Positions 7,948 to 24,890 of a stretch of 32,478 nucleotides of DNA are shown piece after piece. Numbering within the stretch: position 1 is the first letter of the stretch; each line of letters starts with the position of its first letter. Under the pieces are notes generated by a model. It made no database searches. It worked only from the letters and a program-made list of their open reading frames with translations, and was not told the origin of the DNA. The translations under genes and the position numbers were made by a program. The stretch is from IMG/VR virus record IMGVR_UViG_3300038530_002790, positions 1 to 32,478 of that record, one strand, 5' to 3'. This DNA comes from a virus. Lineage: Duplodnaviria > Caudoviricetes.

Positions 7948-8517
7948 ATGCTTCCAGAAGTATTGCAAGAGGTCAAGAAGCGTGGACATGCAATCTTTGA
8001 GCGTGGTGCGTGGAATCTGAATTTGATTGGTGTCAGAACGCCCACACTTCAATCCAATCTCTTTGATGATCATCTTCACTGTGTATTCAAGGATGATTGT
8101 GGTCAATGGGTTGACATCAGCTTCCAATGCACCACAGATCCAGGTCTGTATTGGTTGCACAATCCAATGAGATCTGCAGGAACTGCAATCATGTGTCCCG
8201 GTCAATATCGCGGAGCATACAAGATTGGGATGCACAGAAAGAGGTATCCAGCATTGGTTCAGGTGAAACCAGTCAAAGTGTTCAGGGACCGCAACAGGGA
8301 TGAGATCCTGGACATGGACCCAAAGACGATCACTGAAGGTCTGTATGGTGTGAACATCCACCACAGTGGAGAGAGTGGTTCTGAAAACGTGAATCGCTGG
8401 TCAGCTGGTTGCACGGTCCTGTCCAATCTGAATGACTGGGAAGTCTTTTTGTCTATCGTGAGGAGATCAGCTGACACATATGGTGATCGGTTCACATACA
8501 CCCTGATTGAAAAATAG
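7948..8517 (+). CDS. Putative endolysin, YkuD/L,D-transpeptidase-like cysteine peptidase
   Basis: GVNIHH...RWSAGC fits the H-x(n)-S-x-G-C catalytic motif. It lies directly before a holin-like gene and has a GAGGTG RBS. Confidence 0.65.
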   Translation: MLPEVLQEVKKRGHAIFERGAWNLNLIGVRTPTLQSNLFDDHLHCVFKDDCGQWVDISFQCTTDPGLYWLHNPMRSAGTAIMCPGQYRGAYKIGMHRKRYPALVQVKPVKVFRDRNRDEILDMDPKTITEGLYGVNIHHSGESGSENVNRWSAGCTVLSNLNDWEVFLSIVRRSADTYGDRFTYTLIEK

Positions 8518-8525
8518 GAGAACCT

Positions 8526-8729
8526 ATGCTTGAGAAATTCAAGAGTCGAAAATTCATCGCTGCATTCTGTGGTGCACTGCTTCCACCTGTCCTTGCATAC
8601 CTTGGACAAGAGATTGAACTTGGTGAAGCTTTGCAACTGTCTGCAGCTGTCATTGTTTCGTACATATTCGGGCAAGGATATGTGGATGGGAAGGCTGCAG
8701 AAGGTGCAGATACCTCATCAGATGGTTGA
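8526..8729 (+). CDS. Putative holin
   Basis: 67 aa with a basic N-terminus (KSRKF), two hydrophobic segments and a charged C-terminus. AGGAG RBS; adjacent to the endolysin. Confidence 0.7.
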   Translation: MLEKFKSRKFIAAFCGALLPPVLAYLGQEIELGEALQLSAAVIVSYIFGQGYVDGKAAEGADTSSDG

Positions 8730-8976
8730 CATGCTTGGAGCAATCATTGACGCACTTGCAGTGATAGGTGCTGCAGGTGTGATTGCTTTTGCTGGCTTTG
8801 TATGGAAAAAGCTGCAAGGATCAAAGCAGAAGACACTGACACCATCACAACCCGCTTCAGAGGTTAGAAACATCGTGATCAATCATGGGCAAGACAATCA
8901 AGATCAGATTGATTCTGCCTTGGAGTCTGACGATGCTGCAGGGAGACTTGCGCAGCTTGGAAACAAAAGACGCTGA
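8722..8976 (+). CDS. Single-TM membrane protein, possibly i-spanin-like
   Basis: Likely start is ATG 8722 or 8731 within the 8530 track ORF. N-terminal TM segment followed by KK, then a helical domain; lysis cassette position. Confidence 0.5.
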   Translation: MVDMLGAIIDALAVIGAAGVIAFAGFVWKKLQGSKQKTLTPSQPASEVRNIVINHGQDNQDQIDSALESDDAAGRLAQLGNKRR

Positions 8977-8978
8977 TC

Positions 8979-9392
8979 ATGATGAATCTTCTGGTGCTAT
9001 CACTGGCTGCTGCTGCATCACCTGCAGTCCTTCCACAGTGGCCAGATGCACCAGATCCTGCACACAGTGAGTGTCCAGAATCTGTTCCGGTTCGAGCTGG
9101 TCAGAAGCTTCCCAATCTCCTTTCAGGGGAGTCTGGTCTTGCTGTGTGCTCTTCTATCTGTGAACCGCTTTCATCATATGCACACCTGTTGCAGATTGAG
9201 CAGCACGCAAAGACGTTGGAAGAGTTGTATCAAGTGGACACAGAAAGACTGCAGCATGATGTGAACTATTGGCGACAGCAAGCGCAGCAGCATAACAGTC
9301 TACACAGACAGCCTTGGTTTGTGGCTGTCACCACCACGTTGCTTGTTGGAACACTTGTTCTGACGTATGATTCAACCAGAGGTGCAGAATGA
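8979..9392 (+). CDS. Exported/membrane protein, possibly spanin-like
   Basis: Signal-peptide-like N-terminus, Pro-rich segment, three Cys, a coiled coil and a C-terminal hydrophobic helix. Confidence 0.5.
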   Translation: MMNLLVLSLAAAASPAVLPQWPDAPDPAHSECPESVPVRAGQKLPNLLSGESGLAVCSSICEPLSSYAHLLQIEQHAKTLEELYQVDTERLQHDVNYWRQQAQQHNSLHRQPWFVAVTTTLLVGTLVLTYDSTRGAE

Positions 9393-9691
9393 ACAACAAT
9401 GCAATTGAATGGAGTCATTGGGTTGCACCTTTGATCTCTTTGGTCTTTGTTGCAGGTGGTGGATGGTTTACGCTTGAAGCAGTTGCTAATGATTCAGAAG
9501 CGCTGGAAGTCAAAGTGGAATCCATAGAGTCTCGACTTTCAGAGCAGGACGTTCTTGAAGTCAAGGTTCAACAGGTCCAAGACCGATTGGAGAAGATGGA
9601 GAAGCTGCTTGAAAAGACCATAGAGATTCAACAGATCCAGATGGCTAATCAAGCAGCTATCTGTCAAGCTACGTCTGCTCGTTGCCGCTAA
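9389..9691 (+). CDS. TM plus coiled-coil hypothetical protein
   Basis: N-terminal hydrophobic helix followed by heptad repeats. ATGA-coupled to the upstream gene. Confidence 0.6.
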   Translation: MNNNAIEWSHWVAPLISLVFVAGGGWFTLEAVANDSEALEVKVESIESRLSEQDVLEVKVQQVQDRLEKMEKLLEKTIEIQQIQMANQAAICQATSARCR

Positions 9692-9899
9692 CAGCAGCAG
9701 CATCCTTTTCTGCTTTCCATTTCGCATTCAGCTTTGCATGACGGTCAACGCATTCCCAACAAGCATATTCACCACGATTCATCATCATCTCATAGTATGG
9801 ATGTGATTTACCACACCATGCACACTCGCTGATATCATCGGGGTGGACGCTACTGTGCAATGCTCGCACCACACCACTCAGAGGTGAGTCATCAGCCAT
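9669..9899 (-). CDS. Small Zn-finger protein (CxxC...CxxC)
   Basis: AAGGAGG RBS before the ATG at 9899; CAWC and CWEC motifs. Its 3' end overlaps the convergent ORF 9389-9691. Confidence 0.65.
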   Translation of the reverse strand: MADDSPLSGVVRALHSSVHPDDISECAWCGKSHPYYEMMMNRGEYACWECVDRHAKLNAKWKAEKDAAAVSGNEQT

Positions 9900-10221
9900 T
9901 GGTGGCCTCCTTGGATGCAGCGCCATGCACAAGAACACAGAAGTCACCAAAATCCATTTTCTGAAAGTCCACAAGAAGTGGAATCTCTTCTTCATGAGTT
10001 GAAGCACTGATGTCTGCAATCGTGGAATCAATCACTATCTTCTGAAGCGTCTGCAGTGCTTTCACTTTGTCTTTTTGTGCTCCGATGTCATGAGCAGCGC
10101 AGGGACGCTGCAGCTGCATTCTGACACGGTCCAAGACTCGCTGTGCAAGGTCAATGAACAGATCATGACTGTGATCTTTTTCGTGAATGCTGCCGTCATA
10201 GGTTTGATTGTACAATTTCAT
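9892..10221 (-). CDS. Hypothetical protein
   Basis: ATG 10221 is preceded by a purine-rich ACGACAGAGAGAGAAACA leader. It overlaps the start of the next leftward gene. Confidence 0.6.
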   Translation of the reverse strand: MKLYNQTYDGSIHEKDHSHDLFIDLAQRVLDRVRMQLQRPCAAHDIGAQKDKVKALQTLQKIVIDSTIADISASTHEEEIPLLVDFQKMDFGDFCVLVHGAASKEATNG

Positions 10222-10243
10222 TGTTTCTCTCTCTGTCGTAAAT

Positions 10244-10259
10244 GGTCCCAAGAGGGACC
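10244..10259 (-). other. Short hairpin between the MTase and the 10221 gene
   Basis: GGTCCC-aaga-GGGACC, immediately 5' (minus strand) of an ACGACAG leader motif. Confidence 0.5.
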
Positions 10260-10270
10260 GGGTGGATTGA

Positions 10271-11041
10271 TCAGAATGGAAGTTCATTCTTCCGATTCTG
10301 TATTCTCTGATGACTCTTCCAGAAGTATTCTTCATCCTTTTCAATTCCCACAAAACCACGCCCCGTGTTCAATGCAGCAAGGCCAGTGCTTCCAGAACCC
10401 ATGCAGAAGTCCAAGACTGTTTGGTTCTTTGTGGTGTATGTGTTTATGAGGTATTCAATCAGGGCTGTGGGCTTTTGAGTCGGGTGGAGTCGTTTGGAAC
10501 TGTGGGGCTTCGGATACCTCAAAAGTGCAGTTGGATATTTTTCAGTGCGGACAGACTTTTGAGCAACCATTGAATTCTGATTCAACAATCTGCTGACTGA
10601 TGGTGGTCCTCCGCTTTTGGAAGGCTTCATGTGTGGCGTCATCTGTGGGATGTATGCTGCTTTGATCTTTGCCCCATTCGCTGATCTGCCATGGGAAAAA
10701 ATCAGAACATCTTCCACATTGTTCATTGGTTGAAGCTTTGCAAGTTGGAAATTCCCACCTTGAATCTTGTCCCACACCCAACGATACCGGAACATCTTGA
10801 GGTTGCTGCATGTCACAACAGCACTGAATGGTGGGGTTGCAGTCAGTGCAATGACTCCTGTGGGTGTGATTATTCGCTCCAGCTCTTTCCACAACGGTTC
10901 CAGTGGGATGACGGTGTCCCACCTACATCCAGAAGTTCCATATGGCATGTCAGCAAAAATGAAATCTACTGAATGATCAGACAGCGTTGGAAGCATGTCA
11001 AAGCAATCGCCCAACATCAAGGTCACATTGTCAGGTAGCAT
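10271..11041 (-). CDS. DNA N6-adenine/N4-cytosine methyltransferase (beta class)
   Basis: Motif IV FADMPYG is N-terminal, HPTQKP is present, and motif I VLDFCMGSGSTG...GIEKD is C-terminal. Confidence 0.93.
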   Translation of the reverse strand: MLPDNVTLMLGDCFDMLPTLSDHSVDFIFADMPYGTSGCRWDTVIPLEPLWKELERIITPTGVIALTATPPFSAVVTCSNLKMFRYRWVWDKIQGGNFQLAKLQPMNNVEDVLIFSHGRSANGAKIKAAYIPQMTPHMKPSKSGGPPSVSRLLNQNSMVAQKSVRTEKYPTALLRYPKPHSSKRLHPTQKPTALIEYLINTYTTKNQTVLDFCMGSGSTGLAALNTGRGFVGIEKDEEYFWKSHQRIQNRKNELPF

Positions 11042-11080
11042 GGGTGTCCTTTTGTGTCTGTAGGTTTGGAACGCCCCATC

Positions 11081-11109
11081 AGTTTATATCTGCGAGAAAG
11101 TGAAGTCAA
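11081..11109 (-). promoter_or_regulatory. Leftward sigma70-like promoter
   Basis: Minus strand reads TTGACT-17 bp-TAAACT, about 40 bp upstream of the MTase start. Confidence 0.75.
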
Positions 11110-11157
11110 CACTTTTCTTTCAGTAATTGATACAGATCAATATTGAATAGAAAGTGG

Positions 11158-11186
11158 TTGCAGTATGTTTGAAACACATATATAGT
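11158..11186 (+). promoter_or_regulatory. Rightward sigma70-like promoter
   Basis: TTGCAG-17 bp-TATAGT. The spacer contains the palindrome TGTTTgAAACA. Confidence 0.7.
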
Positions 11187-11228
11187 TCAGAGAGTAGGAC
11201 AAACCTACAGACAGAAAGGAGCAACATC

Positions 11229-11648
11229 ATGAATCTTGAAATCTTGGCAGATGCGCAACCACAGCAACCTGTGCGTGTGTTCGCAGAACTTCACAACAAG
11301 ACCCGAATCACATGCAGTCAAGGATCACGATTCTATGTGGTGGACGTGGTGTGTCCTTGCTGCTTGCAGGAGACTCATGTTGCACTTGCTGGATGGTCTG
11401 CTGTTGCGTGCAGAGGGTGTGGTGCAGAGTTGTACAAGAATCGGACAATCCCACGTGTCTGTGACATGTTCATTCACATCAATACAGATCCAGCTGATAA
11501 GTGGTGGGGATATGCGCAACTGCACAAGATGATTCAGAATCGGTGCATCACGAAGTCAGAGGTCTTGGATCTTGGTGAACAGTATGGATTCAATCGTGCT
11601 GTGATTGATGGACGCTTGGAAGACGTCAGAAAGATGCAGTGTGCATGA
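11229..11648 (+). CDS. Hypothetical protein with Zn ribbon
   Basis: AAGGAG RBS before ATG 11229; CPCC and CRGC motifs. Confidence 0.7.
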   Translation: MNLEILADAQPQQPVRVFAELHNKTRITCSQGSRFYVVDVVCPCCLQETHVALAGWSAVACRGCGAELYKNRTIPRVCDMFIHINTDPADKWWGYAQLHKMIQNRCITKSEVLDLGEQYGFNRAVIDGRLEDVRKMQCA

Positions 11649-12490
11649 TGTCAATCAATACAAAAAAGAGATTGGTTCCAGTTTGTGGATACAAAGGTGG
11701 GAAGCGCAGGTGGTCCAGACAGATTGCTGATCACCTTTTGTCATGCTCTGCTGAACCTGTGTATGATGTTGGAGCTGGTTCAGGTGCAGTGTCATTGTCT
11801 TTGATTGAAGCAGGACTGCAACCAAACAATCTGATCATGATTGATTCTGGACCATGGGGTGAATTTTGGAAGTCTGGTGTCACTGGTGAGCTGGACACAG
11901 ATCTGATTGAACGGATGCTTCTGCATGACAGACCAGAAGATCCAAGACAGGTCAGAGAATGGGTCATGAATGAAGTTGCACAGACCTATTCACCGGAATC
12001 TTTTTTGATCCTACAGGCTGCATCATATGGAAGCATACCAGTGTGGCATGATGGACAAAGTTGGATCAGAGGTGATGCAGGACGGTCCAGGGGATACAGT
12101 GCGCGTGGGTATTGGGAACCCGGTCCTAACTCACCAGAGACAAAACCAAGACCGACTATCTTCACACCAGAGAAGATCATTGATCGGCTGCACGCAGCAT
12201 TGGACGCCCTGCATGGTTGCACGGTGTTGCATCAATGCGCGGAGAGTGTGGAGTTCAGTCCTGGTGTTGTCTATGTTGACCCACCATATGTGGGCACCAG
12301 TGGCTATCAATCACACATGGACGTGCAGCACATTCGTCAGCGGACCACAGGACCATTCTTTTGTTCAGAACAATCTGTCCAGGGCTCGCCGGACAAAGTC
12401 CACGTGCTTGGTCCACGGAAAAGAGGTGCACTGCGTGGTGTGCAAAAGCGTCAAAAAGATGAACTTCTTTTGGAGTGGGAGCAATCATGA
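11645..12490 (+). CDS. DNA adenine methyltransferase, Dam/D12-like (alpha class)
   Basis: GYKGGK, motif I YDVGAGSGAV and motif IV VYVDPPY appear in alpha-class order. Specificity is unknown. Confidence 0.85.
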   Translation: MMSINTKKRLVPVCGYKGGKRRWSRQIADHLLSCSAEPVYDVGAGSGAVSLSLIEAGLQPNNLIMIDSGPWGEFWKSGVTGELDTDLIERMLLHDRPEDPRQVREWVMNEVAQTYSPESFLILQAASYGSIPVWHDGQSWIRGDAGRSRGYSARGYWEPGPNSPETKPRPTIFTPEKIIDRLHAALDALHGCTVLHQCAESVEFSPGVVYVDPPYVGTSGYQSHMDVQHIRQRTTGPFFCSEQSVQGSPDKVHVLGPRKRGALRGVQKRQKDELLLEWEQS

Positions 12491-12729
12491 GAAAACAAAT
12501 GAAGACAAAAGATTTCGTAACCATCACAGTGGTCAGACACATTGAAGTGGAAGTGGAGATTGAACATTCTCCAGAGGTTCCACAGTCGTTCCACACTGAA
12601 GGACAGCAGGAGCACTTTTCAATCTTGGGTTCTATTGATGTCTGTTCTGGTGAATCCATTGAACTTGACGAAGATGAAGAACTTCAAGCGATCAAGACAT
12701 TCTTGATCGAACCCACAAAACCGTTCTGA
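12487..12729 (+). CDS. Acidic hypothetical protein
   Basis: GGAG RBS; ATGA overlap with the upstream stop. Confidence 0.6.
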   Translation: MRKQMKTKDFVTITVVRHIEVEVEIEHSPEVPQSFHTEGQQEHFSILGSIDVCSGESIELDEDEELQAIKTFLIEPTKPF

Positions 12730-12741
12730 AGGAGAACAATC

Positions 12742-13287
12742 ATGACGATAGAAGAGAGACAGGTGCTTCCATATGTCAAGGGAAGCGAAACAAGCAAAGC
12801 AGCTGCAGAGTCCATGGTGCAGCACGCTCCAAGCATAGAGAGACAGCTTCTGGTGATGTTTATCGCATCAGGTGCAGAGGGATGGACAGATGATGAGCTG
12901 GAGAACGTGACAAAGAGATCCCATCAGACTGTCTCTGCACGTCGCAGAGGTCTTGAAAAAAAGGGTGTGATCTATGCAACGGGGATGAAGCGCAAGACAA
13001 GATCTGGAAGATCAGCGATGGTCTATGCAATTGATCCGTTCATCAGTCCTGCTGAGATTGAGAGCAGGATGAAAGCAAAGCAGACTGGAAGGCCAAAGAG
13101 CGACAATCCACGCAACAGCAGAATCACAATCTGCTTCAATGCTGAAGAGATGAAACACGTGAAGCACGCTGCAGATGTGGAGATGGTCACAGTTGCGCAG
13201 CTGGTGCGCAAGTCCGTCATCCAGTATCTGTGCACGCAGCACGAAGTGGACAGAAAATGTCTGCAAGAAAGTTCAGAGATCAGTTAA
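12742..13287 (+). CDS. DNA-binding protein: winged HTH plus C-terminal ribbon-helix-helix-like domain
   Basis: GWTDDEL...HQTVSARRRGLEKKG...RKTRSGR is wHTH-like. GRPK...RITICFNAEE...VAQLVR is RHH/MobC-like. Confidence 0.7.
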   Translation: MTIEERQVLPYVKGSETSKAAAESMVQHAPSIERQLLVMFIASGAEGWTDDELENVTKRSHQTVSARRRGLEKKGVIYATGMKRKTRSGRSAMVYAIDPFISPAEIESRMKAKQTGRPKSDNPRNSRITICFNAEEMKHVKHAADVEMVTVAQLVRKSVIQYLCTQHEVDRKCLQESSEIS

Positions 13288-13326
13288 CATTCAACAGCCA
13301 ATCAAGGCACAACGACAGGAAAAGCA

Positions 13327-13791
13327 ATGACTTCAATTTTCCCATGCAACAGCATGGTCAATGACACGTTCGACATGCTCCGAAACAATACGACCGATCA
13401 AAGGAAAGTGGAATTCCCTGATTGGGAATGGCCCAATTCTGATCTCAGACACTCTCAAGAGTGCGTCAGATTTGTGCTGGAGATTGATCGGAAGTACTAC
13501 ATCCAAATTTCAAAGCGAATGGCCCGAACAACAGCAGCTGGAGCGATACCAAAATTCACTGTAACGGTCTTTGAACCAGATCAGCCCAACATAGGACGGA
13601 CACTGGAGCTGGATGAACGCTCATACTTACAAGCTGAGGAACTGTGTTCTGTGTTGTACATAGATCCAAGAGGTGCAGATGCTTTGTGTGGAATCTTCAA
13701 TTCGCTTGGAGTAAACACAATCACATCCAATGGAGACATCATCACACTGCAGAAAGATGACACCATGGAAAGCGTTGGAGGTCTGTCATGA
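13327..13791 (+). CDS. Hypothetical protein
   Basis: 154-aa ORF with an ACGACAGGAAAAGCA leader; ATGA-coupled to the next gene. Confidence 0.65.
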   Translation: MTSIFPCNSMVNDTFDMLRNNTTDQRKVEFPDWEWPNSDLRHSQECVRFVLEIDRKYYIQISKRMARTTAAGAIPKFTVTVFEPDQPNIGRTLELDERSYLQAEELCSVLYIDPRGADALCGIFNSLGVNTITSNGDIITLQKDDTMESVGGLS

Positions 13792-14615
13792 CTTTTGATC
13801 CATACAATCTTCCAGACGGATTCCCTTCAGATGGTGTGCAAGAGATTCAGCGGAAGCCATACATCACACACGTAGGGCTGGTGTGGCTTGCTAATCATCG
13901 TGGAAAGCCATGGAGCAGCACCATTGACCACATCGAAAGACAATATGGTGATGATGGGTGGCCCACATACGTGGAAGTGACAGTCACCATATCAGATGGG
14001 GAGATCAGTCACACTGCGATGGGTGACGCCACTCGCAACAATGTTGGAAGAAACATCGTTCCACACTTTGTCAGGATGGCACACACAAGAGCGATGAACC
14101 GTGCACTGCGCTCCTTCTGTGGATATGCTGGATGCACTGCAGATGAGTTGGGTCAGTACGATGAAGACCCGACATTCAGTGGTTCTTCTGGTGCACAGAT
14201 GACACATGCACCAATGGTCGAGAACGGGAATGCACAACCCCGTGACACTTCCGTCCAGAATCGTGCACCCCGTTCAGCAAAGAATGGAGATCCATCATGT
14301 CCACACTGTGGATCGATGGTGTACGACAATCGCGGGACAGCCAAAGGAAAGCAGCCACTCTTTGTCTGTAGTGCAGGGGAGAGGTGTACCGGCGCCAAGA
14401 AGAAAGGGGACAAGATTTATGCATGGTCATCATGGGATGTGGACTGGTGGGACAAACAGCTGCATGACATCAAGATGATGAATGCAGACAATCAGAAGGT
14501 GGATGTGATTGCAGGAAACCTTGCAGAGAGTATGGTGCTGGATGGTCAGCATCAAGACGAAGTCAACCAAAGAGAAGAACCGCCGTTCTTCAGTGATGAA
14601 GACATTCCATACTAA
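13788..14615 (+). CDS. Putative single-strand annealing protein (Rad52/Sak-like) with Zn ribbon and acidic tail
   Basis: GDA...RMAHTRAMNRALR...TADEL core, a CPHCG...C...C ribbon and an SSB-like C-terminus (SDEDIPY). Adjacent to Gp157 and RusA. Confidence 0.6.
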   Translation: MTFDPYNLPDGFPSDGVQEIQRKPYITHVGLVWLANHRGKPWSSTIDHIERQYGDDGWPTYVEVTVTISDGEISHTAMGDATRNNVGRNIVPHFVRMAHTRAMNRALRSFCGYAGCTADELGQYDEDPTFSGSSGAQMTHAPMVENGNAQPRDTSVQNRAPRSAKNGDPSCPHCGSMVYDNRGTAKGKQPLFVCSAGERCTGAKKKGDKIYAWSSWDVDWWDKQLHDIKMMNADNQKVDVIAGNLAESMVLDGQHQDEVNQREEPPFFSDEDIPY

Positions 14616-14625
14616 AGGAGAGAAC

Positions 14626-15177
14626 ATGGAAACGACAGAAACAAAACCTTCCACGGGTCTGCAGCTGATGCGCAGAGCAGAATCAATCATTGAACAGCTG
14701 TGGGGATCAGAAGGGGAGTTGCTTGGTGTCATCAATGATGAGATTGAAGACTTCTTCAATGACTCTGATCACAAGATTGATCAGTATCGATATGTGAGAG
14801 AGATGCTGCTTGCGAAAGCTGAGAGAGCAAAAGCAAACAGGGAGAGATTCAGCAAGCTGGAAAAGCAGTGCAGGAATGAGATCAATCGAATCAGCACCAG
14901 ATGTCTTGCTTTGATGGAAGCAAGAATGGAAGTGGACCATGAAAAGGGGCGCAAGTTCCTATCGGACCATGGGACCGTCTTTGTGTCGGATCGAACCTCT
15001 TTGGAGATTGATGATGAAGAAGCATTCATCAAGCTGTGGTTGAAGAATGATCCTTCTCTGATCACAGAACAAGTCATCCACAAGATTGACAAGATTGCAC
15101 TGAAGTCCGCATTGAAGAATGGACGGGAGATTGAAGGTGCTCGTCTTGTGGTCAATCGTGGTGTCACTTTCCGATAG
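14626..15177 (+). CDS. Siphovirus Gp157-like protein
   Basis: Coiled coil followed by KIDKIALKSALKNGREIEGARLV; AAGGAG RBS. Confidence 0.8.
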   Translation: METTETKPSTGLQLMRRAESIIEQLWGSEGELLGVINDEIEDFFNDSDHKIDQYRYVREMLLAKAERAKANRERFSKLEKQCRNEINRISTRCLALMEARMEVDHEKGRKFLSDHGTVFVSDRTSLEIDDEEAFIKLWLKNDPSLITEQVIHKIDKIALKSALKNGREIEGARLVVNRGVTFR

Positions 15178-15179
15178 TC

Positions 15180-15226
15180 AAAAAAGCCCACCACGCATCC
15201 AGAGGTCTTTGGATACGTGGTGGGCT
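15180..15226 (-). terminator. Intrinsic terminator oriented on the minus strand
   Basis: 17-bp stem (15185-15201 with 15210-15226). The C/A mismatch on the plus strand becomes a U-G pair on minus-strand RNA, and the stem ends in a U run only on the minus strand. Confidence 0.75.
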
Positions 15227-15250
15227 ACGACAGAAAGAGCAATGTGCTCA
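15180..15250 (-). ncRNA. Candidate ~70-nt antisense small RNA
   Basis: Lies between a minus-strand extended -10 (TGtTATCGT, 15264-15256) and the minus-strand terminator. Its 5' part is complementary to the ACGACAG leader motifs. Inferred, not recognised as a known family. Confidence 0.45.
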
Positions 15251-15263
15251 AAGGTACGATAAC

Positions 15264-15710
15264 ATGATTCAATGGACACAATGGTGCAAATTCACTGTAC
15301 CCGGTGACCCAATACCAAAAGCACGTGCACGATCGTTCCGCACTGCAACTGGAATCGCTCACTACACACCACAGCGCACCAAGCAATATGAGAGAGACAT
15401 TCAGACTCTTGCTGCTCAGTATGCACGGAACAAACCGCCACCCAAGACACCAATCAGATTGACTGTGATCGCTATCTTCAAGCGTCCAAAATATCTGCAG
15501 AAGAAGTCATCACCAGTGGGTCTGGTCCCGCACTGCGTCAGACCAGATCTGGACAATGTTCTGAAAGCTGTCAAGGATTCGCTGAACGGGATATTGTATG
15601 AAGACGACGGACAGGTGTGCTCCATACGTGCTGAATGTTTCTATGCTGAGAAGCTACACAACCATGCACGTACAGAAATCATCATCCATAAACCCATGGA
15701 GGTGACTTAG
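15264..15710 (+). CDS. rusA: RusA-family Holliday junction resolvase
   Basis: VPGDPIPKARAR, RPDLDNVLKAVKDSLNGILYEDDGQV and a terminal RTEIII. Confidence 0.92.
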   Translation: MIQWTQWCKFTVPGDPIPKARARSFRTATGIAHYTPQRTKQYERDIQTLAAQYARNKPPPKTPIRLTVIAIFKRPKYLQKKSSPVGLVPHCVRPDLDNVLKAVKDSLNGILYEDDGQVCSIRAECFYAEKLHNHARTEIIIHKPMEVT

Positions 15711-16141
15711 TGAACATATGGCACCCTGCACCGAGAGGTCTAATAGTTGCAGCAGCCACAGAACGATGGACAAGAGAACGACCAGCAACAGAATTGGTGG
15801 TGTATCTGTGGGTGTGGTCTCAGCGTGAAGATGGAGAGAGACCCACCAGACGACAGATTGCAAGACTCTTTGGATGGACTGAACACTATGCACGGAAGAT
15901 GCTGATCAGGGTTGCAGAAGACCATGAACAGTGGCTGAAGATGGTGTCACCCAAGACTGTTGGAAGTCGTCACCCACCGGAGCACAATGATTCTGAAGAC
16001 TTACAGAACAGAATCACCCAAGATTCACCACGTATCATCCGTGATTCACCCGATCGCGTGCGCGAATTCACAACACAATCAAATTCAAAACACATCAATC
16101 AAATTGGAATGGAGTTGGGAAGATGGCATCGAAAGCAGTAA
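15710..16141 (+). CDS. Putative replication initiator-like HTH protein
   Basis: LVVYLWVWS...PTRRQIARLFGWT is HTH-like and is followed by a low-complexity linker carrying DNA repeats. The next gene is loader-like. Confidence 0.55.
   Translation: MNIWHPAPRGLIVAAATERWTRERPATELVVYLWVWSQREDGERPTRRQIARLFGWTEHYARKMLIRVAEDHEQWLKMVSPKTVGSRHPPEHNDSEDLQNRITQDSPRIIRDSPDRVREFTTQSNSKHINQIGMELGRWHRKQ
15947..16105. other. Candidate replication origin (iteron-like repeats plus A-rich tract)
   Basis: TCACCCAAGA at 15947 and 16014; GATTCACC at 16022 and 16043; AATTCAC at 16065; A-rich tract at 16071-16105. Confidence 0.5.
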
Positions 16142-16665
16142 TCATCAGGACACTTGAAGCAATAGCAAACAACCACAACAAGCCGCGATGGTGGATCGAT
16201 GACAGCATCATGGTGTGGATGGATCAGCTTGAAGATGTTTCAGATTCAGATCTGATTCAAGGGACCAAAGAACTTCTGAGAACATCGAAGCAGCTTCCAA
16301 CAGTTGCAAGACTTCGAGAGGTGATGGTTGCAAGCACACAAACCAAGGTAGGTGATCCAGTCACACATAGAGCATGCAAAGCGTGCAACGGAACTGGAAT
16401 GCGACAGTTGGTGAGGTGGTTCAGAATGCACGGGAAGCAGAAGGTCTGGTCTGGTGTGGCTGCATGTGATTGTGAGAAGGGTCGAGTGCTTGCAATGGGT
16501 GCATTCCCTGTATGGTCAGACGTTGTGAATCAATGGAAAGCAGATGATTTCACGGACAAGATCTTCTTCGGGACTCACAAAGAGCCACACATATCCTTCA
16601 AAGACAGTGTTCTTCCAGAGGTATATGAACGATCACAAGCAAGGTCTGAAGATGCCTCTTTATGA
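16123..16665 (+). CDS. Replication protein (helicase-loader-associated-like N-terminus plus Zn motif)
   Basis: VWMDQLEDVS...LPTVARL resembles G39P/P-type helical domains; CKACNGTG...CDC motif. Confidence 0.5.
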   Translation: MASKAVIIRTLEAIANNHNKPRWWIDDSIMVWMDQLEDVSDSDLIQGTKELLRTSKQLPTVARLREVMVASTQTKVGDPVTHRACKACNGTGMRQLVRWFRMHGKQKVWSGVAACDCEKGRVLAMGAFPVWSDVVNQWKADDFTDKIFFGTHKEPHISFKDSVLPEVYERSQARSEDASL

Positions 16666-16843
16666 ATACATGTGCAAAGAGTGTGGACACACAGTGGAGG
16701 TTCTGCAGTCATTCAATGCAGATGCACCAGTGTGCAATCAATGCAAACAGAACCAAGACAAACAGCATCAGATGGTGAAGCAGATTTCACGGAGCAGCTT
16801 CATATTGAAGGGATCTGGATGGGAGAGGGATGGATATGGGTGA
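16652..16843 (+). CDS. FmdB-family zinc ribbon protein
   Basis: MPLYEYMCKECGH..E.LQ...CNQC...SSFILKGSGW..DGY. Confidence 0.88.
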   Translation: MPLYEYMCKECGHTVEVLQSFNADAPVCNQCKQNQDKQHQMVKQISRSSFILKGSGWERDGYG

Positions 16844-16854
16844 TAGGATTGCAC
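16841..16854 (+). promoter_or_regulatory. Candidate extended -10 promoter (TGaTAGGAT), copy 2
   Basis: TGATAGGATTGCAC followed by AGGAGG; matches 4457-4471. Confidence 0.45.
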
Positions 16855-16869
16855 CATAGGAGGATGGAC

Positions 16870-17175
16870 ATGGATGCAATCATTGAACAACTGCTTTCAG
16901 CGGGTCATCTTGGACTGTTCGCAGTCTTTTTGATCTATCAGCATTTCAGTCTTCAGAAGCGTCATGACAAGCTGGTGGACTCGTTCCAATCACAGCTGCG
17001 TCAGATCAATGAAGACTATGAAAGCAGAATAGAGAAGATGCGGGAGAGGTATGATGCAGTGATCAGGGAAGCGAGAAAGGAGAGAGAAGAAGATGCAAAA
17101 GACTTCTTGGTGACTCGCGCAGAGATTCAGCAAAAGATTGTAGCAAAGCTGGACAGGCTACTTGAAAAGGGATGA
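16870..17175 (+). CDS. Single-TM coiled-coil protein, BhlA-like holin candidate
   Basis: AGGAGG RBS; LLSAGHLGLFAVFLIYQ TM segment followed by a coiled coil. An alternative ATG lies at 16864. Confidence 0.55.
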   Translation: MDAIIEQLLSAGHLGLFAVFLIYQHFSLQKRHDKLVDSFQSQLRQINEDYESRIEKMRERYDAVIREARKEREEDAKDFLVTRAEIQQKIVAKLDRLLEKG

Positions 17176-18167
17176 AGATGACGACAGAAGAGATCAAAGC
17201 GCTCAAAGAAAAAATCAATGGAAGGACATTGGTGGTCAGTGTCTCAGGTGGGAAGGACAGCACTGCAACCTGCTTGCATTTGCAAGAGATTGGTCTTCCG
17301 TATGAAGCAATCTTTTTCAATACTGGATGGGAACACAAAGACACATATGAATATGTGAATGAATATCTTCCAAGCAAGATTGGACCCATTCAACATCTCA
17401 GCAAAGAACCGGAATTGAAATCACCAGAAGCGGAAGCTCTTGCTGTCAAATATGAAGAACGATTGGGATTCAGGTCACCAATGGTGAGATGGTGCATCCA
17501 CAAGGGTGTCTTTCCAGCAAGGCTGTCACGATGGTGCACGCAGAATCTCAAAGTCTTTGCAGCCAAAGACTATCTGAGAGCCATGGAAGAAGAACCCATC
17601 AGCGTGGTTGGAGTCAGGGCACAAGAAAGCAAAGCAAGATCCATGATGGATGAGTGGGAATGGTTTGAAGCTGGCGACTGTGAAGTGTGGCGTCCACTAA
17701 TAAATTGGAAGACAGAAGACGTCATTGAAATCCACAAGCGTCATGGTGTGCGACCGAATCCCATGTATTTAGGGGATAACCCTGTGGACCGAGTGGGATG
17801 CTATCCATGTGTGTATGCACGCAAAGAAGAGATCAAAAGGATCGCGAGCAGTAGTCCAGAAAGAATCGCCCTTCTGTCTGATTTGGAAAAAGACATCCAT
17901 CAGATCAGGGTTGCAAGAGCTGAGAGCAAAGGAGAGGTCCTGAGAACACCCACAGGATGGTTCCAATCACCGACCGGTGACATCAATCCAGCAACAGGCA
18001 AAAGGTCTGGTCTCGCATGGCCTATTGACAAGGTTGTGGAGTGGGCACGGACTAAGCGTGGTGGAAGACAGTTTGAACTGTTTGAATCACTTCCAGGTGA
18101 ACAGGGCTGTGTCAGATGGGGGATGTGTGACACAGGAACTGCATCGAAGAACAGAACATCAGAATGA
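17172..18167 (+). CDS. PAPS-reductase-family (PP-loop) protein
   Basis: VSVSGGKDS PP-loop, NTGWE, RWCTQNLK, GVRAQES..R, RPLINW and RVGCYPC. Confidence 0.9.
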   Translation: MKMTTEEIKALKEKINGRTLVVSVSGGKDSTATCLHLQEIGLPYEAIFFNTGWEHKDTYEYVNEYLPSKIGPIQHLSKEPELKSPEAEALAVKYEERLGFRSPMVRWCIHKGVFPARLSRWCTQNLKVFAAKDYLRAMEEEPISVVGVRAQESKARSMMDEWEWFEAGDCEVWRPLINWKTEDVIEIHKRHGVRPNPMYLGDNPVDRVGCYPCVYARKEEIKRIASSSPERIALLSDLEKDIHQIRVARAESKGEVLRTPTGWFQSPTGDINPATGKRSGLAWPIDKVVEWARTKRGGRQFELFESLPGEQGCVRWGMCDTGTASKNRTSE

Positions 18168-18181
18168 GTCTTTTTCTGGTC

Positions 18182-18203
18182 ATGACATAAAGTATGTCAT
18201 ACT
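18182..18203 (+). promoter_or_regulatory. Palindromic operator-like site overlapping a candidate extended -10 upstream of terS
   Basis: ATGACATA-aag-TATGTCAT is a perfect 8-bp inverted repeat. TGtCATACT lies at 18195-18203, and there is no SD before ATG 18211. Confidence 0.5.
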
Positions 18204-18210
18204 TGTATGT

Positions 18211-18687
18211 ATGGCCGGAAGAAAGAACACAGATGAAGATGTGCTTGTCAGACTTGCTGCAGTGGAATCAGTTTTGATGTCTGGTGAATACAACCGATCA
18301 GCACAGATGAGACTGTCAGCACAGTACAGCGTGACACCAAGACAGATCCAAAGGGATGCAGCTTTGATCAGACAGCAATGGACTGAAGAGGTTGCAGAAA
18401 CAGACAGCAAAGCAGGTAAGGCTGATTGGTTGCAGCGGGTCAGAAGTGCACAGGTTCGATCATTTGATTCGGGTCACAGTATGGCTGCAGCACGATTGCT
18501 TCAGCTGGAGGGTCAAGCGCTTGGAGTATATGAACCAGCAAAGATGGACATCAATCACAATGTACACACCATTGATGATGCTCCGCGTCTTGCAGCGGAA
18601 CTGCTTCAGGCGATTCCTGCAGCTTGTGATGTTCTTGGTGTCCCTGTCCCACAGCTTCCAGTGATTGACATCGAAGAGGTGGAATGA
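18211..18687 (+). CDS. Putative terminase small subunit
   Basis: N-terminal HTH-like LSAQYSVTPRQIQRD and a helical body; located upstream of terL. Confidence 0.65.
   Translation: MAGRKNTDEDVLVRLAAVESVLMSGEYNRSAQMRLSAQYSVTPRQIQRDAALIRQQWTEEVAETDSKAGKADWLQRVRSAQVRSFDSGHSMAAARLLQLEGQALGVYEPAKMDINHNVHTIDDAPRLAAELLQAIPAACDVLGVPVPQLPVIDIEEVE
18662..18681 (+). repeat. 20-bp direct repeat, left of the MT-A70 gene
   Basis: TGATTGACATCGAAGAGGTG, identical to 19194-19213. Confidence 0.95.
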
Positions 18688-19196
18688 TGTTTGCAACTAC
18701 ATTGATGGACCCACCTTGGAAGGAGACTGGTGGTGGGAGAATCAAGCGTGGTGCGGATCGTCACTATGGACTTGTGAAGACGCATGACATGCCAAGGGTC
18801 ATCATGCAGTCTGGTGTGTGGTGTCCTGCTGATGATGCCCATTTATACATGTGGGCGACCAACAATCACTTGAGTGATGCACTTTGGCTGATGGATGCTT
18901 TGGGATTCCAATACAAGACAAACATTGTGTGGACCAAGGACAGAATTGGATTGGGTCAATACTTTAGGGGACAGCATGAATTGCTCTTGTTTGGCACAAG
19001 GGGAAAAGGATTCAAAGTCAAGACAGACGATCGCACATTGCGCTCATGGATACATGCAAAGCGAGGGGAACATAGCGCAAAGCCTGAACAGTTTTATGAA
19101 CTCATAGAGGCACGCAGTGAAGGACCATATCTGGAGATGTTTGCTCGCAAGTCAAGAAGTGGTTGGACATCATGGGGGGATCAAGTATGCGAATGA
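18684..19196 (+). CDS. MT-A70-family adenine methyltransferase
   Basis: MDPPW, HLYMWATN, GFQYKTNIVWTK, GQYFRGQHELLLFG, HSAKPE and YLEMFAR...GW..WGDQ. Confidence 0.93.
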   Translation: MMFATTLMDPPWKETGGGRIKRGADRHYGLVKTHDMPRVIMQSGVWCPADDAHLYMWATNNHLSDALWLMDALGFQYKTNIVWTKDRIGLGQYFRGQHELLLFGTRGKGFKVKTDDRTLRSWIHAKRGEHSAKPEQFYELIEARSEGPYLEMFARKSRSGWTSWGDQVCE

Positions 19197-19213
19197 TTGA
19201 CATCGAAGAGGTG
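19194..19213 (+). repeat. 20-bp direct repeat, right of the MT-A70 gene
   Basis: Identical to 18662-18681; it supplies the MTase stop codon. Confidence 0.95.
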
Positions 19214-19218
19214 AAGTG

Positions 19219-19431
19219 ATGCGTCTGGTCTGCAGATATTGCATGACAGAGATTGCTGGTGGTGGGAAAGGATATCAAGCAGCGATGAGAGCAGCTGCAG
19301 TGATCTCTGACCCACCTGCAAGAGTCACAACGTCATGGAGGTGTCCAGAGTGTGATCAGATGAACAGGACTGGACCACCAGTGCAGGGGAGATTGTTCAC
19401 ACCAACATCCACCAAGGCTGGTGCAGGATGA
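19219..19431 (+). CDS. Small Zn-finger protein
   Basis: CRYC and CPEC motifs; GAGGTG RBS; ATGA-coupled to terL. Confidence 0.6.
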   Translation: MRLVCRYCMTEIAGGGKGYQAAMRAAAVISDPPARVTTSWRCPECDQMNRTGPPVQGRLFTPTSTKAGAG

Positions 19432-20801
19432 CCAGTGCTGCAGCAGTGCTTCAAGCCATAAACAGCAAAGATGTGCTGTCAAATCTAAAGCGGGAGAATC
19501 CCCTTGCATTTGCCAGATTGTGGCACAGAGAACACCCAAAGACATCACAGCGTGCAGCATTTCAGAGCCCTGGAGAGCTGGTCACCATTGTGTGTGGTGG
19601 CAATAGATCGGGCAAGACAGAGGGCTGTGCTCAGTTTGTGGTGGCGAACATCCTTGGACGTCAACACCACGCTGTGCAAGCCTGGTGCAACAACAATCAG
19701 ATTGACCCGTTGACCATACCAAATCGACCATCCACAGTGTGGGCTGTTGCATTGGATTCCGGTGATTCGCGGGAATACTTGCGACCAGCGATTGCAAAGT
19801 ATCTCCCACCAGATGCCAAGTGGCGAAATCAGTATGGATACGGACAAGCTGAAGTGCGTCTTCCATCTGGTGGTCGATGCCTCTTCAAGTCTGTGGAGCA
19901 GGGGAGGGATGGATTCCAAGGATCGTCAGTGGATCTGTGTTGGTTTGATGAAGAACCCAATGACCAAGCAGTGGTCAATGAGTCATTGATGAGATTGGTG
20001 GACAGAAAAGGAAGAATGCTGTTCAGCATGACACCACTCAGAGGGATGACATGGCTCTATGACAGATGGATTGCAGACACACCCGATGACACACGGGTGC
20101 ACTATATTCATGGCGTGGACAATCCACATCTTCCAGAAGGTGCACTGGAGCGTCTGCTGAGACAGTATGGGAGCCATGAAAGAGCAGCAAGAGCAAAGGG
20201 AGAATGGACCACCTTGGAAGGGCGTGTCTATCAAGATTGGTCCAGACAGCGGAATGTGGTTGCACCCATTGACATTGATCCATCTTGGGCCACCTATTTT
20301 GGGATTGATTGGGGTACCCGTGCACCCACAGCGATTGTTGTCTGCAAGGTGGATCATGATGACAGAATGTGGATCGTGGATGAATACTATCGGAGTCAGG
20401 CCACAATCAATCAGCATGCAGTAGAGATCAAAAAGCTGATTGAAAAGCACGGTCAACCAGAATGGATTGTCTGTGATCCAGAAGACCGTGGTGCAAGACT
20501 TGCACTGTCAAGAGATCACGGGATTGCAAACATACCTGCACGCAAGGGTCCAAATTCTGTTGCTGCTGGAATCAATCATCTTGCAGAGAGATTGCTTCCA
20601 GATGCTTCTGGATATCCAGCGTTCTTTGTCTTTGATCACTGCAAGAACTTTATCAGAGAGATTGAATCATATATTTGGGACGATCGCGGGACTGGTGAAG
20701 GTCGAGACAGACCGAAACCATCCCAAGCTGATCACCTTTTGGATGCTGCTCGCTATGTCTGCAGCAGATTGTACAGGAGTGGGTCTCTGCATGTAGGATG
20801 A
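19428..20801 (+). CDS. terL: Terminase large subunit
   Basis: Walker A GGNRSGKT, Walker B CWFDEE, coupling motif SMTP, and nuclease motifs GIDWG and HLLDAARY. Confidence 0.95.
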   Translation: MTSAAAVLQAINSKDVLSNLKRENPLAFARLWHREHPKTSQRAAFQSPGELVTIVCGGNRSGKTEGCAQFVVANILGRQHHAVQAWCNNNQIDPLTIPNRPSTVWAVALDSGDSREYLRPAIAKYLPPDAKWRNQYGYGQAEVRLPSGGRCLFKSVEQGRDGFQGSSVDLCWFDEEPNDQAVVNESLMRLVDRKGRMLFSMTPLRGMTWLYDRWIADTPDDTRVHYIHGVDNPHLPEGALERLLRQYGSHERAARAKGEWTTLEGRVYQDWSRQRNVVAPIDIDPSWATYFGIDWGTRAPTAIVVCKVDHDDRMWIVDEYYRSQATINQHAVEIKKLIEKHGQPEWIVCDPEDRGARLALSRDHGIANIPARKGPNSVAAGINHLAERLLPDASGYPAFFVFDHCKNFIREIESYIWDDRGTGEGRDRPKPSQADHLLDAARYVCSRLYRSGSLHVG

Positions 20802-23865: not shown

Positions 23866-24890
23866 TGACCATGAACCGGAACTTCACGATCAAATCCACC
23901 ACAAAGGGCAACACCACGAAGGTGGTTGCAAGCACGTCAAATCCTGACAGGTATGCAGACATTGTGGTGTGGGACAAGAACGCCGATTTGGAAAACTACA
24001 AGAACAATCCCGTGGTCCAATTTGGTCACAACTATGATCTTCCACCAGTTGGGAAGACCGTGAATCTGGACATTGATCCACGTTCTGGTGATTTGATTGC
24101 TGAGATCCAGTGGGATGATAGTCCAGACAATCCACTTGGTCAGACTGTAGCAAGACAATTCAGAGAAGGCTTCATGTCTGCTGTGAGTGTGGGGTTCAGT
24201 CCCGGTGAATCTACACCAAGACGAAGTCTTCCCAAAGATCATGAAGCATATGGTGAAAAAGGAGCATTGATGACATCCCCCAAATTGTTAGAAATATCGG
24301 CTGTGCCCGTGCCCGCAAATGCAGAAGCACTTGCAATCCGTGGACTGTATGGAATCACTGATCAGATCTTGGAAGTCCAAGACGATGGTGATTCATACAC
24401 AGTGGTGTTCAGAAAGATGAAAGAAGAAGACGAAGATGAAGACATGGGTATGCATGAAGATGATGAAGACATGGGTATGCATGACGAAGATGAAGATGAT
24501 GAAGACATGGGTATGCATGAAGATGATGAAGAAGATGCATATGGAGACCATGACGAAGATGAAGACAAAGCGGAGCACGATGAAGACGAAGATGAAGAAG
24601 GACCGTCTTCAGTGGCTGTGTCTGCGCCAGATGGCTATCACTGGATGAACTATGAAGGTGGACCCGTCCTAATGGCTGGAGAAGATGCCAATCATGATGG
24701 TGCTTCTGTGGAATATGAATTTGAAGTTGTATCTGAACACGATCCAGAACGACTGAAGAACCAAGTCAAGGCACTGATGGTGGATCTAATCGCGAATGAT
24801 CCAACAGTGCGATCAATGTTGCAACCCAAACAAACAACCAAAAGAATGAAGCGCAATGGTGTTGCAGCTTTGTTTGGAATTGACAATTGA
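23865..24890 (+). CDS. HK97-type prohead protease with acidic C-terminal extension
   Basis: ASTSNPDRYAD, NPVVQFGHNYDLPPVG, SAVSVGF and LLEISAVPVPAN; TGATG-coupled to the portal. Confidence 0.92.
   Translation: MTMNRNFTIKSTTKGNTTKVVASTSNPDRYADIVVWDKNADLENYKNNPVVQFGHNYDLPPVGKTVNLDIDPRSGDLIAEIQWDDSPDNPLGQTVARQFREGFMSAVSVGFSPGESTPRRSLPKDHEAYGEKGALMTSPKLLEISAVPVPANAEALAIRGLYGITDQILEVQDDGDSYTVVFRKMKEEDEDEDMGMHEDDEDMGMHDEDEDDEDMGMHEDDEEDAYGDHDEDEDKAEHDEDEDEEGPSSVAVSAPDGYHWMNYEGGPVLMAGEDANHDGASVEYEFEVVSEHDPERLKNQVKALMVDLIANDPTVRSMLQPKQTTKRMKRNGVAALFGIDN
24432..24530 (+). repeat. Three copies of GATGAAGACATGGGTATGCATGA (EDMGMH) within an Asp/Glu tract
   Basis: Read directly; the acidic tract extends to about 24600. 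Confidence 0.9.

Follow-up and report, generated by a model that had tools for sequence, protein, structure and literature searches.

The DNA analysed here (hereafter the window) is the whole 32,478-nucleotide stretch of IMG/VR record IMGVR_UViG_3300038530_002790; it is a single whole contig with a 131-nt terminal repeat and, because of this repeat, is a complete circular tailed-phage genome of about 32.3-32.35 kb. Genes were called with a script based on codons and Shine-Dalgarno sequences, one ORF (10221-9892) was added manually, and the borders between early and late genes were taken from gene order. When the 42 ORFs were compared with PHROG, matches were obtained for terminase, portal, capsid, neck, tail and endolysin genes as well as for three methylases, a Gam-like gene, RusA and a gene with a PAPS-reductase domain; integrase and CI families had no match among these ORFs and neither cII nor ant was found in them. 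The initial annotation had described a phage with no visible CI repressor, which holds in that no CI or integrase was found, but the product of gene 12742-13287, with two DNA-binding-like domains (weak matches to a winged-helix family and to a NikA-like domain), could be a protein regulator. Judging from the Tara-style names of several relatives the uncultured phage is likely marine. A genome scan gave one weak match of 56 residues only (L123), and the annotated phage collection that was searched gave a single weak capsid match and nothing else.

The locus of interest is the interval between the Gp157/Gam-like gene and rusA, where a minus-strand element is located (Table 1). Behind rusA, the genes 15710-16141 and 16123-16665 encode two conserved proteins that are specific to this phage family and had no Pfam or NCBIfam match; weak HTH look-alikes were seen for the first, and the two are probably a replication initiator and its partner.

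Table 1. Positions of the element, its flanking genes and the predicted pairing sites in the window (predicted hybrid energies in kcal/mol).
Feature	Position	Strand	Remark
Upstream gene, Siphovirus Gp157 / Mu Gam-like	14626..15177	+	phrog_253, PF05565
Downstream gene, RusA Holliday-junction resolvase	15264..15710	+	PF05866
Extended -10 promoter box TG-n-TATCGT (TGtTATCGT)	15256..15264	-	overlaps rusA start codon
Predicted small RNA, about 73 nt	15177..15249	-	+1 = G at 15249 (+/-1); 3' end in U run
5' hairpin, 5 bp (predicted fold)	15237..15249	-	3' arm = anti-Shine-Dalgarno part
Linker/seed, mostly single-stranded	15227..15236	-	complement of ACGACAGAAA
Intrinsic-terminator-like stem and U6 tail	15180..15226	-	17 bp, one U-G
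Start region of D12-class adenine methylase gene 11645-12490	11623..11644	+	best predicted site, -31.0
Leader and start of gene 13327-13791 (no family)	13312..13334	+	predicted target, -24.9
Leader and start of leftward ORF 10221-9892 (109 aa, no family)	10219..10239	-	predicted target, -24.0, 13 contiguous pairs
Leader of first rightward early gene 11229-11648	11207..11224	+	predicted target, -19.6
Just inside gene 12742-13287 (two DNA-binding-like domains)	12745..12769	+	predicted target, -25.7
Just inside PAPS-reductase-domain gene 17172-18167	17181..17204	+	predicted target, top genome-wide identity score, -24.8

All coordinates given in the initial annotation of this region were found to be correct. 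It had noticed a terminator that works only on the minus strand within a region whose genes are all on the plus strand, and this was confirmed: the stem 15185-15226 was called on the minus strand only, its single C-A mismatch on the plus strand becomes a U-G pair on the minus strand, and A6 at 15180-15185 is not accompanied by any T run on the plus strand. Among the 11 terminator-like sites in 8000-20000 this stem was the strongest, and the fold z was -8.1. The minus-strand extended -10 box that had been noted is likewise present; a generic promoter scan did not list it because the scan requires a -35. The loop of the 5' hairpin in the window phage is CAU, i.e. an anti-start codon. For the window and ten relative loci Rfam gave no family, with 0 matches at the gathering score and, at E up to 10, just two chance snoRNA matches that both lie outside the element. 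The 6-codon ORF pointed out earlier on the plus strand is present at 15242-15262 and is absent from the two closest relatives, L002 and L003, and was therefore rejected as a functional leader peptide.

Relatives were gathered by searches with RusA, the Gp157 gene, terminase and the genes at 15710 and 16123; a profile search for Gp157 brought no decisive addition. After removal of duplicates (L001 and L109, which equal the window, and L004-L007, L104-L108, L110, L111, L115, L118, L122, L124-L127 and L129) and of loci too short to contain the interval (L116, L120 and L121), eleven distinct orthologous intervals before rusA were available, namely those of the window phage (W), L002, L003, L010, L019, L027, L112, L113, L114, L117 and L119, of which W, L002 and L003 are closely related to each other (terminase 83%). 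The layout was the same in all 11: the upstream stop codon is followed by A-rich sequence, then by a stem of 9-21 bp that is unrelated in sequence, an A/C-rich linker and finally the antisense box. An antisense G-n-TAnnnT at 30-65 nt from the stem was found in 11/11 intervals, compared with 1/44 other intergenic hairpins, 35/366 other gene starts and a background of 0.13% per position, the pattern having been defined after the sequences were viewed and one of two box matches within 90 nt having been chosen in each of W, L027 and L119. A twelfth phage, the complete relative G006, was checked once the pattern was fixed and has the extended box, the 5' stem, a terminator stem with U4 and a linker that forms 12-13 contiguous pairs with five early leaders; it is off the spacing rule described below by 1 nt, with T at spacing 7 and G at 8. 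Over the 12 units the mean column identity is about 40% and 4/5 invariant columns fall in the box, and since only the promoter box is conserved the family is invisible to sequence or Rfam searches. The stems could not be aligned with MAFFT. A descriptor search over 3.2 Mb of redundant loci recovered 10/11 units (L117 was missed), but also matched 28 further distinct strings, and is by itself not specific. No unit was seen within 230 nt before rusA in six loci where RusA is present (L031, L033, which is the same as G008, L052, L054, L037 and L091).

If the +1 is placed at spacing 7 from the box, it is a purine and is paired, opening the 5' hairpin, in 11/11 intervals; at spacing 6 a purine and an opened 5' stem were found in 0/11 and 1/11, and at spacing 8 in 9/11 and 10/11, respectively. 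At positions outside the selection, T was present at -10 in 10/11 and at -1 in 9/11, and G at +1 in 10/11. There was no conserved -35, and upstream of -18 no position was common to more than 7/11. The long stem was more stable on the antisense strand in 10/11 units compared with 15/44 controls, and its non-Watson-Crick positions on the plus strand were 7 C-A and 2 G-T, compared with 10 C-A and 17 G-T in the controls. On the antisense strand of L112, a C(UUCG)G loop is found at +1. Across the orthologues, predicted RNA lengths are 70-91 nt; at least five U were present in the 8-nt tail of 7/11 units, and in the other 4/11, with 3-4 U, termination looks weak from the sequence of the tail. Given that the box, the stem, the spacing-7 purine and the 5' hairpin have been kept across the orthologues, it is very likely that a minus-strand small-RNA gene is present at this locus. 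The initial annotation had deduced such an RNA of about 70 nt from the window, for which the 12 orthologues now provide strong support, and since the predicted 5' end has a dedicated promoter right next to it, the RNA would seem to be a primary transcript.

The same interval could be read as a plus-strand feature, in which case no antisense RNA would be made, the unit would be a processing or stabilising hairpin followed by the rusA leader, and the box would result incidentally from the bases around the start codon. The TG of the box is indeed complementary to the A of ATG and the base preceding it in W, L002, L003 and L112, and the distant complete relative G008 (terminase 45%) has short hairpin-plus-leader cassettes with UNCG loops on the sense strand. 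However, the box does not overlap ATG in L010, L019, L027, L113, L114, L117, L119 and G006, the distance between box and stem varies from 30 to 65 nt and the rule for the +1 and the 5' stem still holds, and the stem wobbles favour the antisense strand, unlike those of the controls. We consider this explanation very improbable.

The pairing of the predicted RNA with the window genome was examined at 41 start regions. A threshold of -22 kcal/mol was passed by 3/41 start regions compared with 6/1370 other windows, and when accessibility was included the best four of the 41 were those of 11645, 10221, 13327 and 11229 (-15.6 to -10.3), the fifth belonging to a structural gene (-7.2). Widening the start regions to +30 brings in 12742 and 17172. 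The methylase assignment of gene 11645-12490 falls below the cut-off of Pfam PF02086. Genome-wide, 5 of the best 6 seed matches in W were located in start regions, which make up 3.6% of windows; for the identity of the 23-nt 5' domain, the fourth-best score was reached in 0/300 and the best in 5/300 Markov-shuffled genomes.

These results refine the target list of the initial annotation, in which copies of a 19-mer at 15226 had been reported at several start regions. The 19-mer recurs ungapped at 13311 (3 mismatches) and at 10240 on the minus strand (4 mismatches), every other copy having at least 6, and the gapped copy at 11206 is present as described. The copies at 13311, 10240, 11206, 17181 and 12745 coincide with predicted targets, whereas weak pairing is predicted at 14632 (-13.7) and before 11041 (-10.9), two sites that are outranked by mid-gene sites at 15850 (-18.1) and 29553 (-19.8); the best site, at 11623-11644 before the methylase gene, had been missed. 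The exact 7-mer ACGACAG, which had been proposed for scanning, does not exceed chance, since its 6 copies compare with 3.6 expected and 18/100 shuffles reach 6, and only the longer match is beyond chance. The proposal that one RNA co-represses both divergent early units is borne out for the second leftward gene, 10221, where the predicted site is strong, but the site of the first leftward gene, 11041, is weak. As a separate observation made by eye, both divergent early leaders have a 14-nt stretch in common in inverted orientation (11052-11065 on the minus and 11200-11213 on the plus strand), a possible promoter-proximal or operator element.

The seed differs between the phages, being ACGACAG in W, L002 and L003 (in the latter two it is retained although both flanking stems are replaced), ACAACACAACAG in L010, CAACCAACAGG in L019 and CACACGGAG in L027 and G006, and the early leaders of each phage carry that phage's own version. 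Co-variation of seed and targets in related phages, which the initial annotation had suggested looking for, was thereby found: in a double-centred matrix of hybrid energies for 8 phages the cognate combination of RNAs and leaders was the best of 40,320 permutations, with accessibility it was the second best of 40,320, and for six distant phages it was the best of 720 with both energy versions. When 9 phages were pooled, 28/54 top seed matches were located in start regions, which constitute 3.5-6.5% of windows; the number among the top 6 was 6 in G006, 5 in W and L002, 3 in L003 and L117, 2 in L010 and L019, and 1 in L027 and L119. At starts uncoupled from an upstream stop (6 phages), a match was present at 23/58 early compared with 1/67 late starts.

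Two controls limit how far these matches can be taken as evidence for action in trans. Comparison with dinucleotide shuffles, one of the tests envisaged at the outset, gave a divided answer: pairing of the 5' domain beat 200/200 shuffles in W and the shuffles were also beaten in L002, L010, L117 and L119, but not in L003 (22/200), L019 (16/200) and L027 (117/200). In the second control, other leaders were reverse-complemented and paired as pseudo-RNAs with the remaining leaders. The element stood out in W, L010, L002 and L117, where 1/41, 0/14, 4/41 and 3/16 pseudo-RNAs, respectively, were better than the element, and it was not distinct from them in L003 (13/41), L019 (18/42), L119 (9/14) and L027 (28/35). 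In these last four phages leader-versus-leader pairing equals that of the element because the early leaders there are near-repeats. A wobble-direction test on aligned seeds and targets showed no clear bias in their differences (38 vs 30), and its run-length version favoured the antisense RNA in 6/8 phages, with a tie in L117 and the reverse in L027, an outcome that G/U-rich seeds favour anyway. A shared leader style, which the rusA leader also follows, could partly explain the co-variation. In G008 one leader motif is found at five early starts, and a relaxed scan detected neither a sixth motif copy beside a stem nor an antisense unit; therefore shared leaders do not require the RNA. The initial annotation had regarded relatives that keep the leader motifs and lack the element as counter-evidence, and G008 is in part such a relative. 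In G008 and L031 a gene of 75-80 aa for a repressor-type HTH protein precedes rusA (G008: L144 2279-2506; L031 2990-3232), and the sequence before 286 in L052 suggests an HTH gene ahead of rusA there as well.

The main rival explanation is a real RNA whose action is confined to cis, as with lambda OOP or P22 sar; it would pair with the Gp157-rusA message and either cause its cleavage or dampen rusA together with the replication genes that follow. Its linker would resemble the leaders since it originated from the rusA leader or is still in use as that leader. The RNA is certainly fully complementary to its own locus, the conserved features are the promoter and the position next to rusA, the same leader motif is found behind other intergenic hairpins of this phage family, and both the leader control in 4/8 phages and the leaders of G008 are in line with this explanation. 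On the other hand, in W, L002 and L003 the element's copy of the leader motif is located about 30-40 nt before the rusA start instead of the about 10 nt seen in leaders and has AGAG where these have GGAG. In addition, the best sites of W (11623) and L002 (12173) are at starts that overlap the upstream stop and also match that phage's own 5'-hairpin loop, which leader style does not explain. The displaced copy, lacking a good Shine-Dalgarno sequence, together with these stop-overlapping sites favours action in trans, and we regard a purely cis-acting RNA as rather unlikely; a cis role may coexist with trans action.

We hold it reasonably probable that the conserved antisense unit makes an RNA of about 73 nt that pairs with about six of the phage's own early-gene starts and blocks their translation. 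The sequences themselves show the box, both stems, that these have been conserved in 12 phages, and a complementarity that changes together with the phage's own leaders, and it is from these that we infer repression in trans. According to this model the host sigma-70-type polymerase would transcribe the unit from early in infection, and the linker would nucleate pairing with the A/C-rich stretch just upstream of the Shine-Dalgarno sequence. The pairing would then open the 5' hairpin so that its 3' arm could cover the Shine-Dalgarno sequence and the start codon, ribosome loading would be blocked on the methylase, DNA-binding and no-family early genes, and the RNA accumulating after infection would shut the early genes down. 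Some cis action would also be expected, since the early message that runs across this locus is complementary to the RNA over its full length. The steps beyond complementarity are modelled by analogy on GcvB (PMC3879156) and c4 (PMC5320573, PMC12197685), as these are presented in the accessible parts of the papers. Because no integrase was found, our preference is for an early-to-late timer rather than immunity.

A trans-acting RNA could also be aimed mainly at host messages or at co-infecting related phages, as a G/U-rich anti-Shine-Dalgarno sequence pairs widely. The RNAs of L010 and L119 pair equally well with the leaders of G006, G008 and L027 and with their own, and phage sRNAs in the accessible published accounts are often host-directed (PMC12197685) or, like SviR, aimed at another virus. 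Across the family, however, the seed follows the phage's own leaders, and such targets are in our judgement quite improbable as the main ones. In an extended form of the preferred reading, the whole early regulon of a lineage without a repressor would be under the RNA as its master repressor, the leader tags serving as an address code, the sense copy titrating the RNA to give a threshold switch, the seed/tag pairs defining immunity groups like those of c4 in P1 vs P7, and the HTH gene replacing the RNA before rusA in G008, L031 and L052. This extension appears doubtful.

In its placement the unit resembles OOP, in its phage-specific pairing c4 and in its many A/C-rich targets GcvB, like a hybrid of the three, and since Rfam was negative for the window and ten relative loci it is a member of none of these families. 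GcvB is an Hfq-dependent RNA. In the accessible text of the reports on P1 and P7, c4 is a phage RNA of about 75 nt that pairs near the ribosome-binding site of the phage's own message, with a variable pairing sequence that changes together with its target between related phages (PMC5320573, PMC12197685), and the predicted pairing here has the same property. By the same accounts, c4 is released from a longer precursor through cleavage by RNase P, is made up of three stem-loops, pairs through two loops (a' and b') and controls an antirepressor message, whereas the unit here has its own antisense promoter, the window RNA is predicted to have two stems and one linker seed (a middle stem is seen in some longer orthologues), and about six dispersed targets are predicted. 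The Rfam covariance model of c4 matched neither the window nor any of the 10 relative loci.

Lambda OOP and P22 sar are described in the accessible part of the literature as short antisense transcripts with their own promoter that oppose an early operon just upstream of replication-region genes (PMC12197685), and a promoter and a terminator opposite an early operon are present here as sequence features. These RNAs are described as acting on a single overlapping message (cII, ant), whereas the linker here also matches and co-varies with distant early leaders, and the flanking genes are a Gp157-like gene and rusA instead of cII or ant, with Rfam negative. GcvB of enteric bacteria is, in the text available, a multi-target sRNA that pairs just upstream of Shine-Dalgarno sequences with ACA-rich enhancer stretches (PMC3879156); the predicted unpaired G/U-rich seed facing A/C-rich stretches before several ribosome-binding sites is similar, weakly so in L027 and L119. 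GcvB differs in that it is conserved and encoded on the chromosome, its seed is fixed and its targets are metabolic (PMC3879156), and there is no sequence relation to it (Rfam negative). SviR of Vibrio PLE satellites, as far as the accessible report describes it, is also a trans-acting multi-target sRNA lowering the translation of phage messages, but it is satellite-encoded and sequence-conserved, targets another virus as well as its own processing, and its seed does not track leaders (bioRxiv 10.1101/2022.04.08.487710).

The leader motifs are, from their sequence and position, similar to the start-associated sequences (SAS) of Cluster K mycobacteriophages, where a phage-specific motif is found at the starts of non-structural genes; in the accessible text its reader, RNA or protein, is left open and one opposite-strand copy is noted in four genomes (PMC3203893). 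The sequence and the phage group are different and no cognate RNA is identified in that text (PMC3203893), whereas the motifs described here have a candidate reader. The antisense RNAs that control a phage's own genes in the accessible review (c4, OOP, sar and aQ) act on one message each (PMC12197685), and in the parts of the literature available to us no phage sRNA was found described as a repressor of several of the phage's own early leaders. A catalogue of candidate RNAs includes, in its accessible part, six before rusA, none of them flagged as terminators and three from human-associated phages (PMC10690425); the unit may overlap one of these candidates, e.g. DNAVirus_5428 (68 nt, freshwater). 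Taken together, the comparison of sequences makes a new family of phage small-RNA genes well supported, and its RNA is probably a multi-target repressor of early translation. If so, a single RNA and phage-specific leader tags on dispersed early genes would constitute a post-transcriptional early-gene switch, and would provide a testable candidate for the reader of start-associated sequences, which the accessible text leaves open (PMC3203893). The twelve natural seed/target sets in the family are suited to swaps.

Several other features were observed in the window and its relatives. In L003 (2573-10277) about nine small early genes, located to either side of the replication region, are preceded by repeated cassettes of a promoter and a leader, which come in two kinds. 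Short GC hairpins follow stop codons ahead of the leader motif in arrays of small genes in L140 (11098-11720), L141 (4198-6761) and L143 (13224-13761), and in the G008 copies of these hairpins the sense strand has UNCG loops. Between the terminase and portal genes of more distant relatives, another kind of antisense unit, built of box, hairpin, linker and terminator, was seen (minus strand, L022 3133, L023 3120 and L024 4184), with a conserved linker and variable stems. A unit of like build precedes an HNH endonuclease gene in a distant phage (L050, minus 1403; terminase 35%), and its linker is complementary to an A/C-rich leader that includes a Shine-Dalgarno sequence and a start. The 32-kb genome has three DNA methylase families (N6_N4, D12-like and MT-A70) in addition to the PAPS-reductase-domain gene (10271-11041, 11645-12490, 18684-19196 and 17172-18167, respectively), and the presence and position of these genes differ between close relatives. 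A tail-fibre-like gene has a 9-nt tandem repeat (5397-5484), and the head protease gene has a repeat that is acidic (24423-24592).
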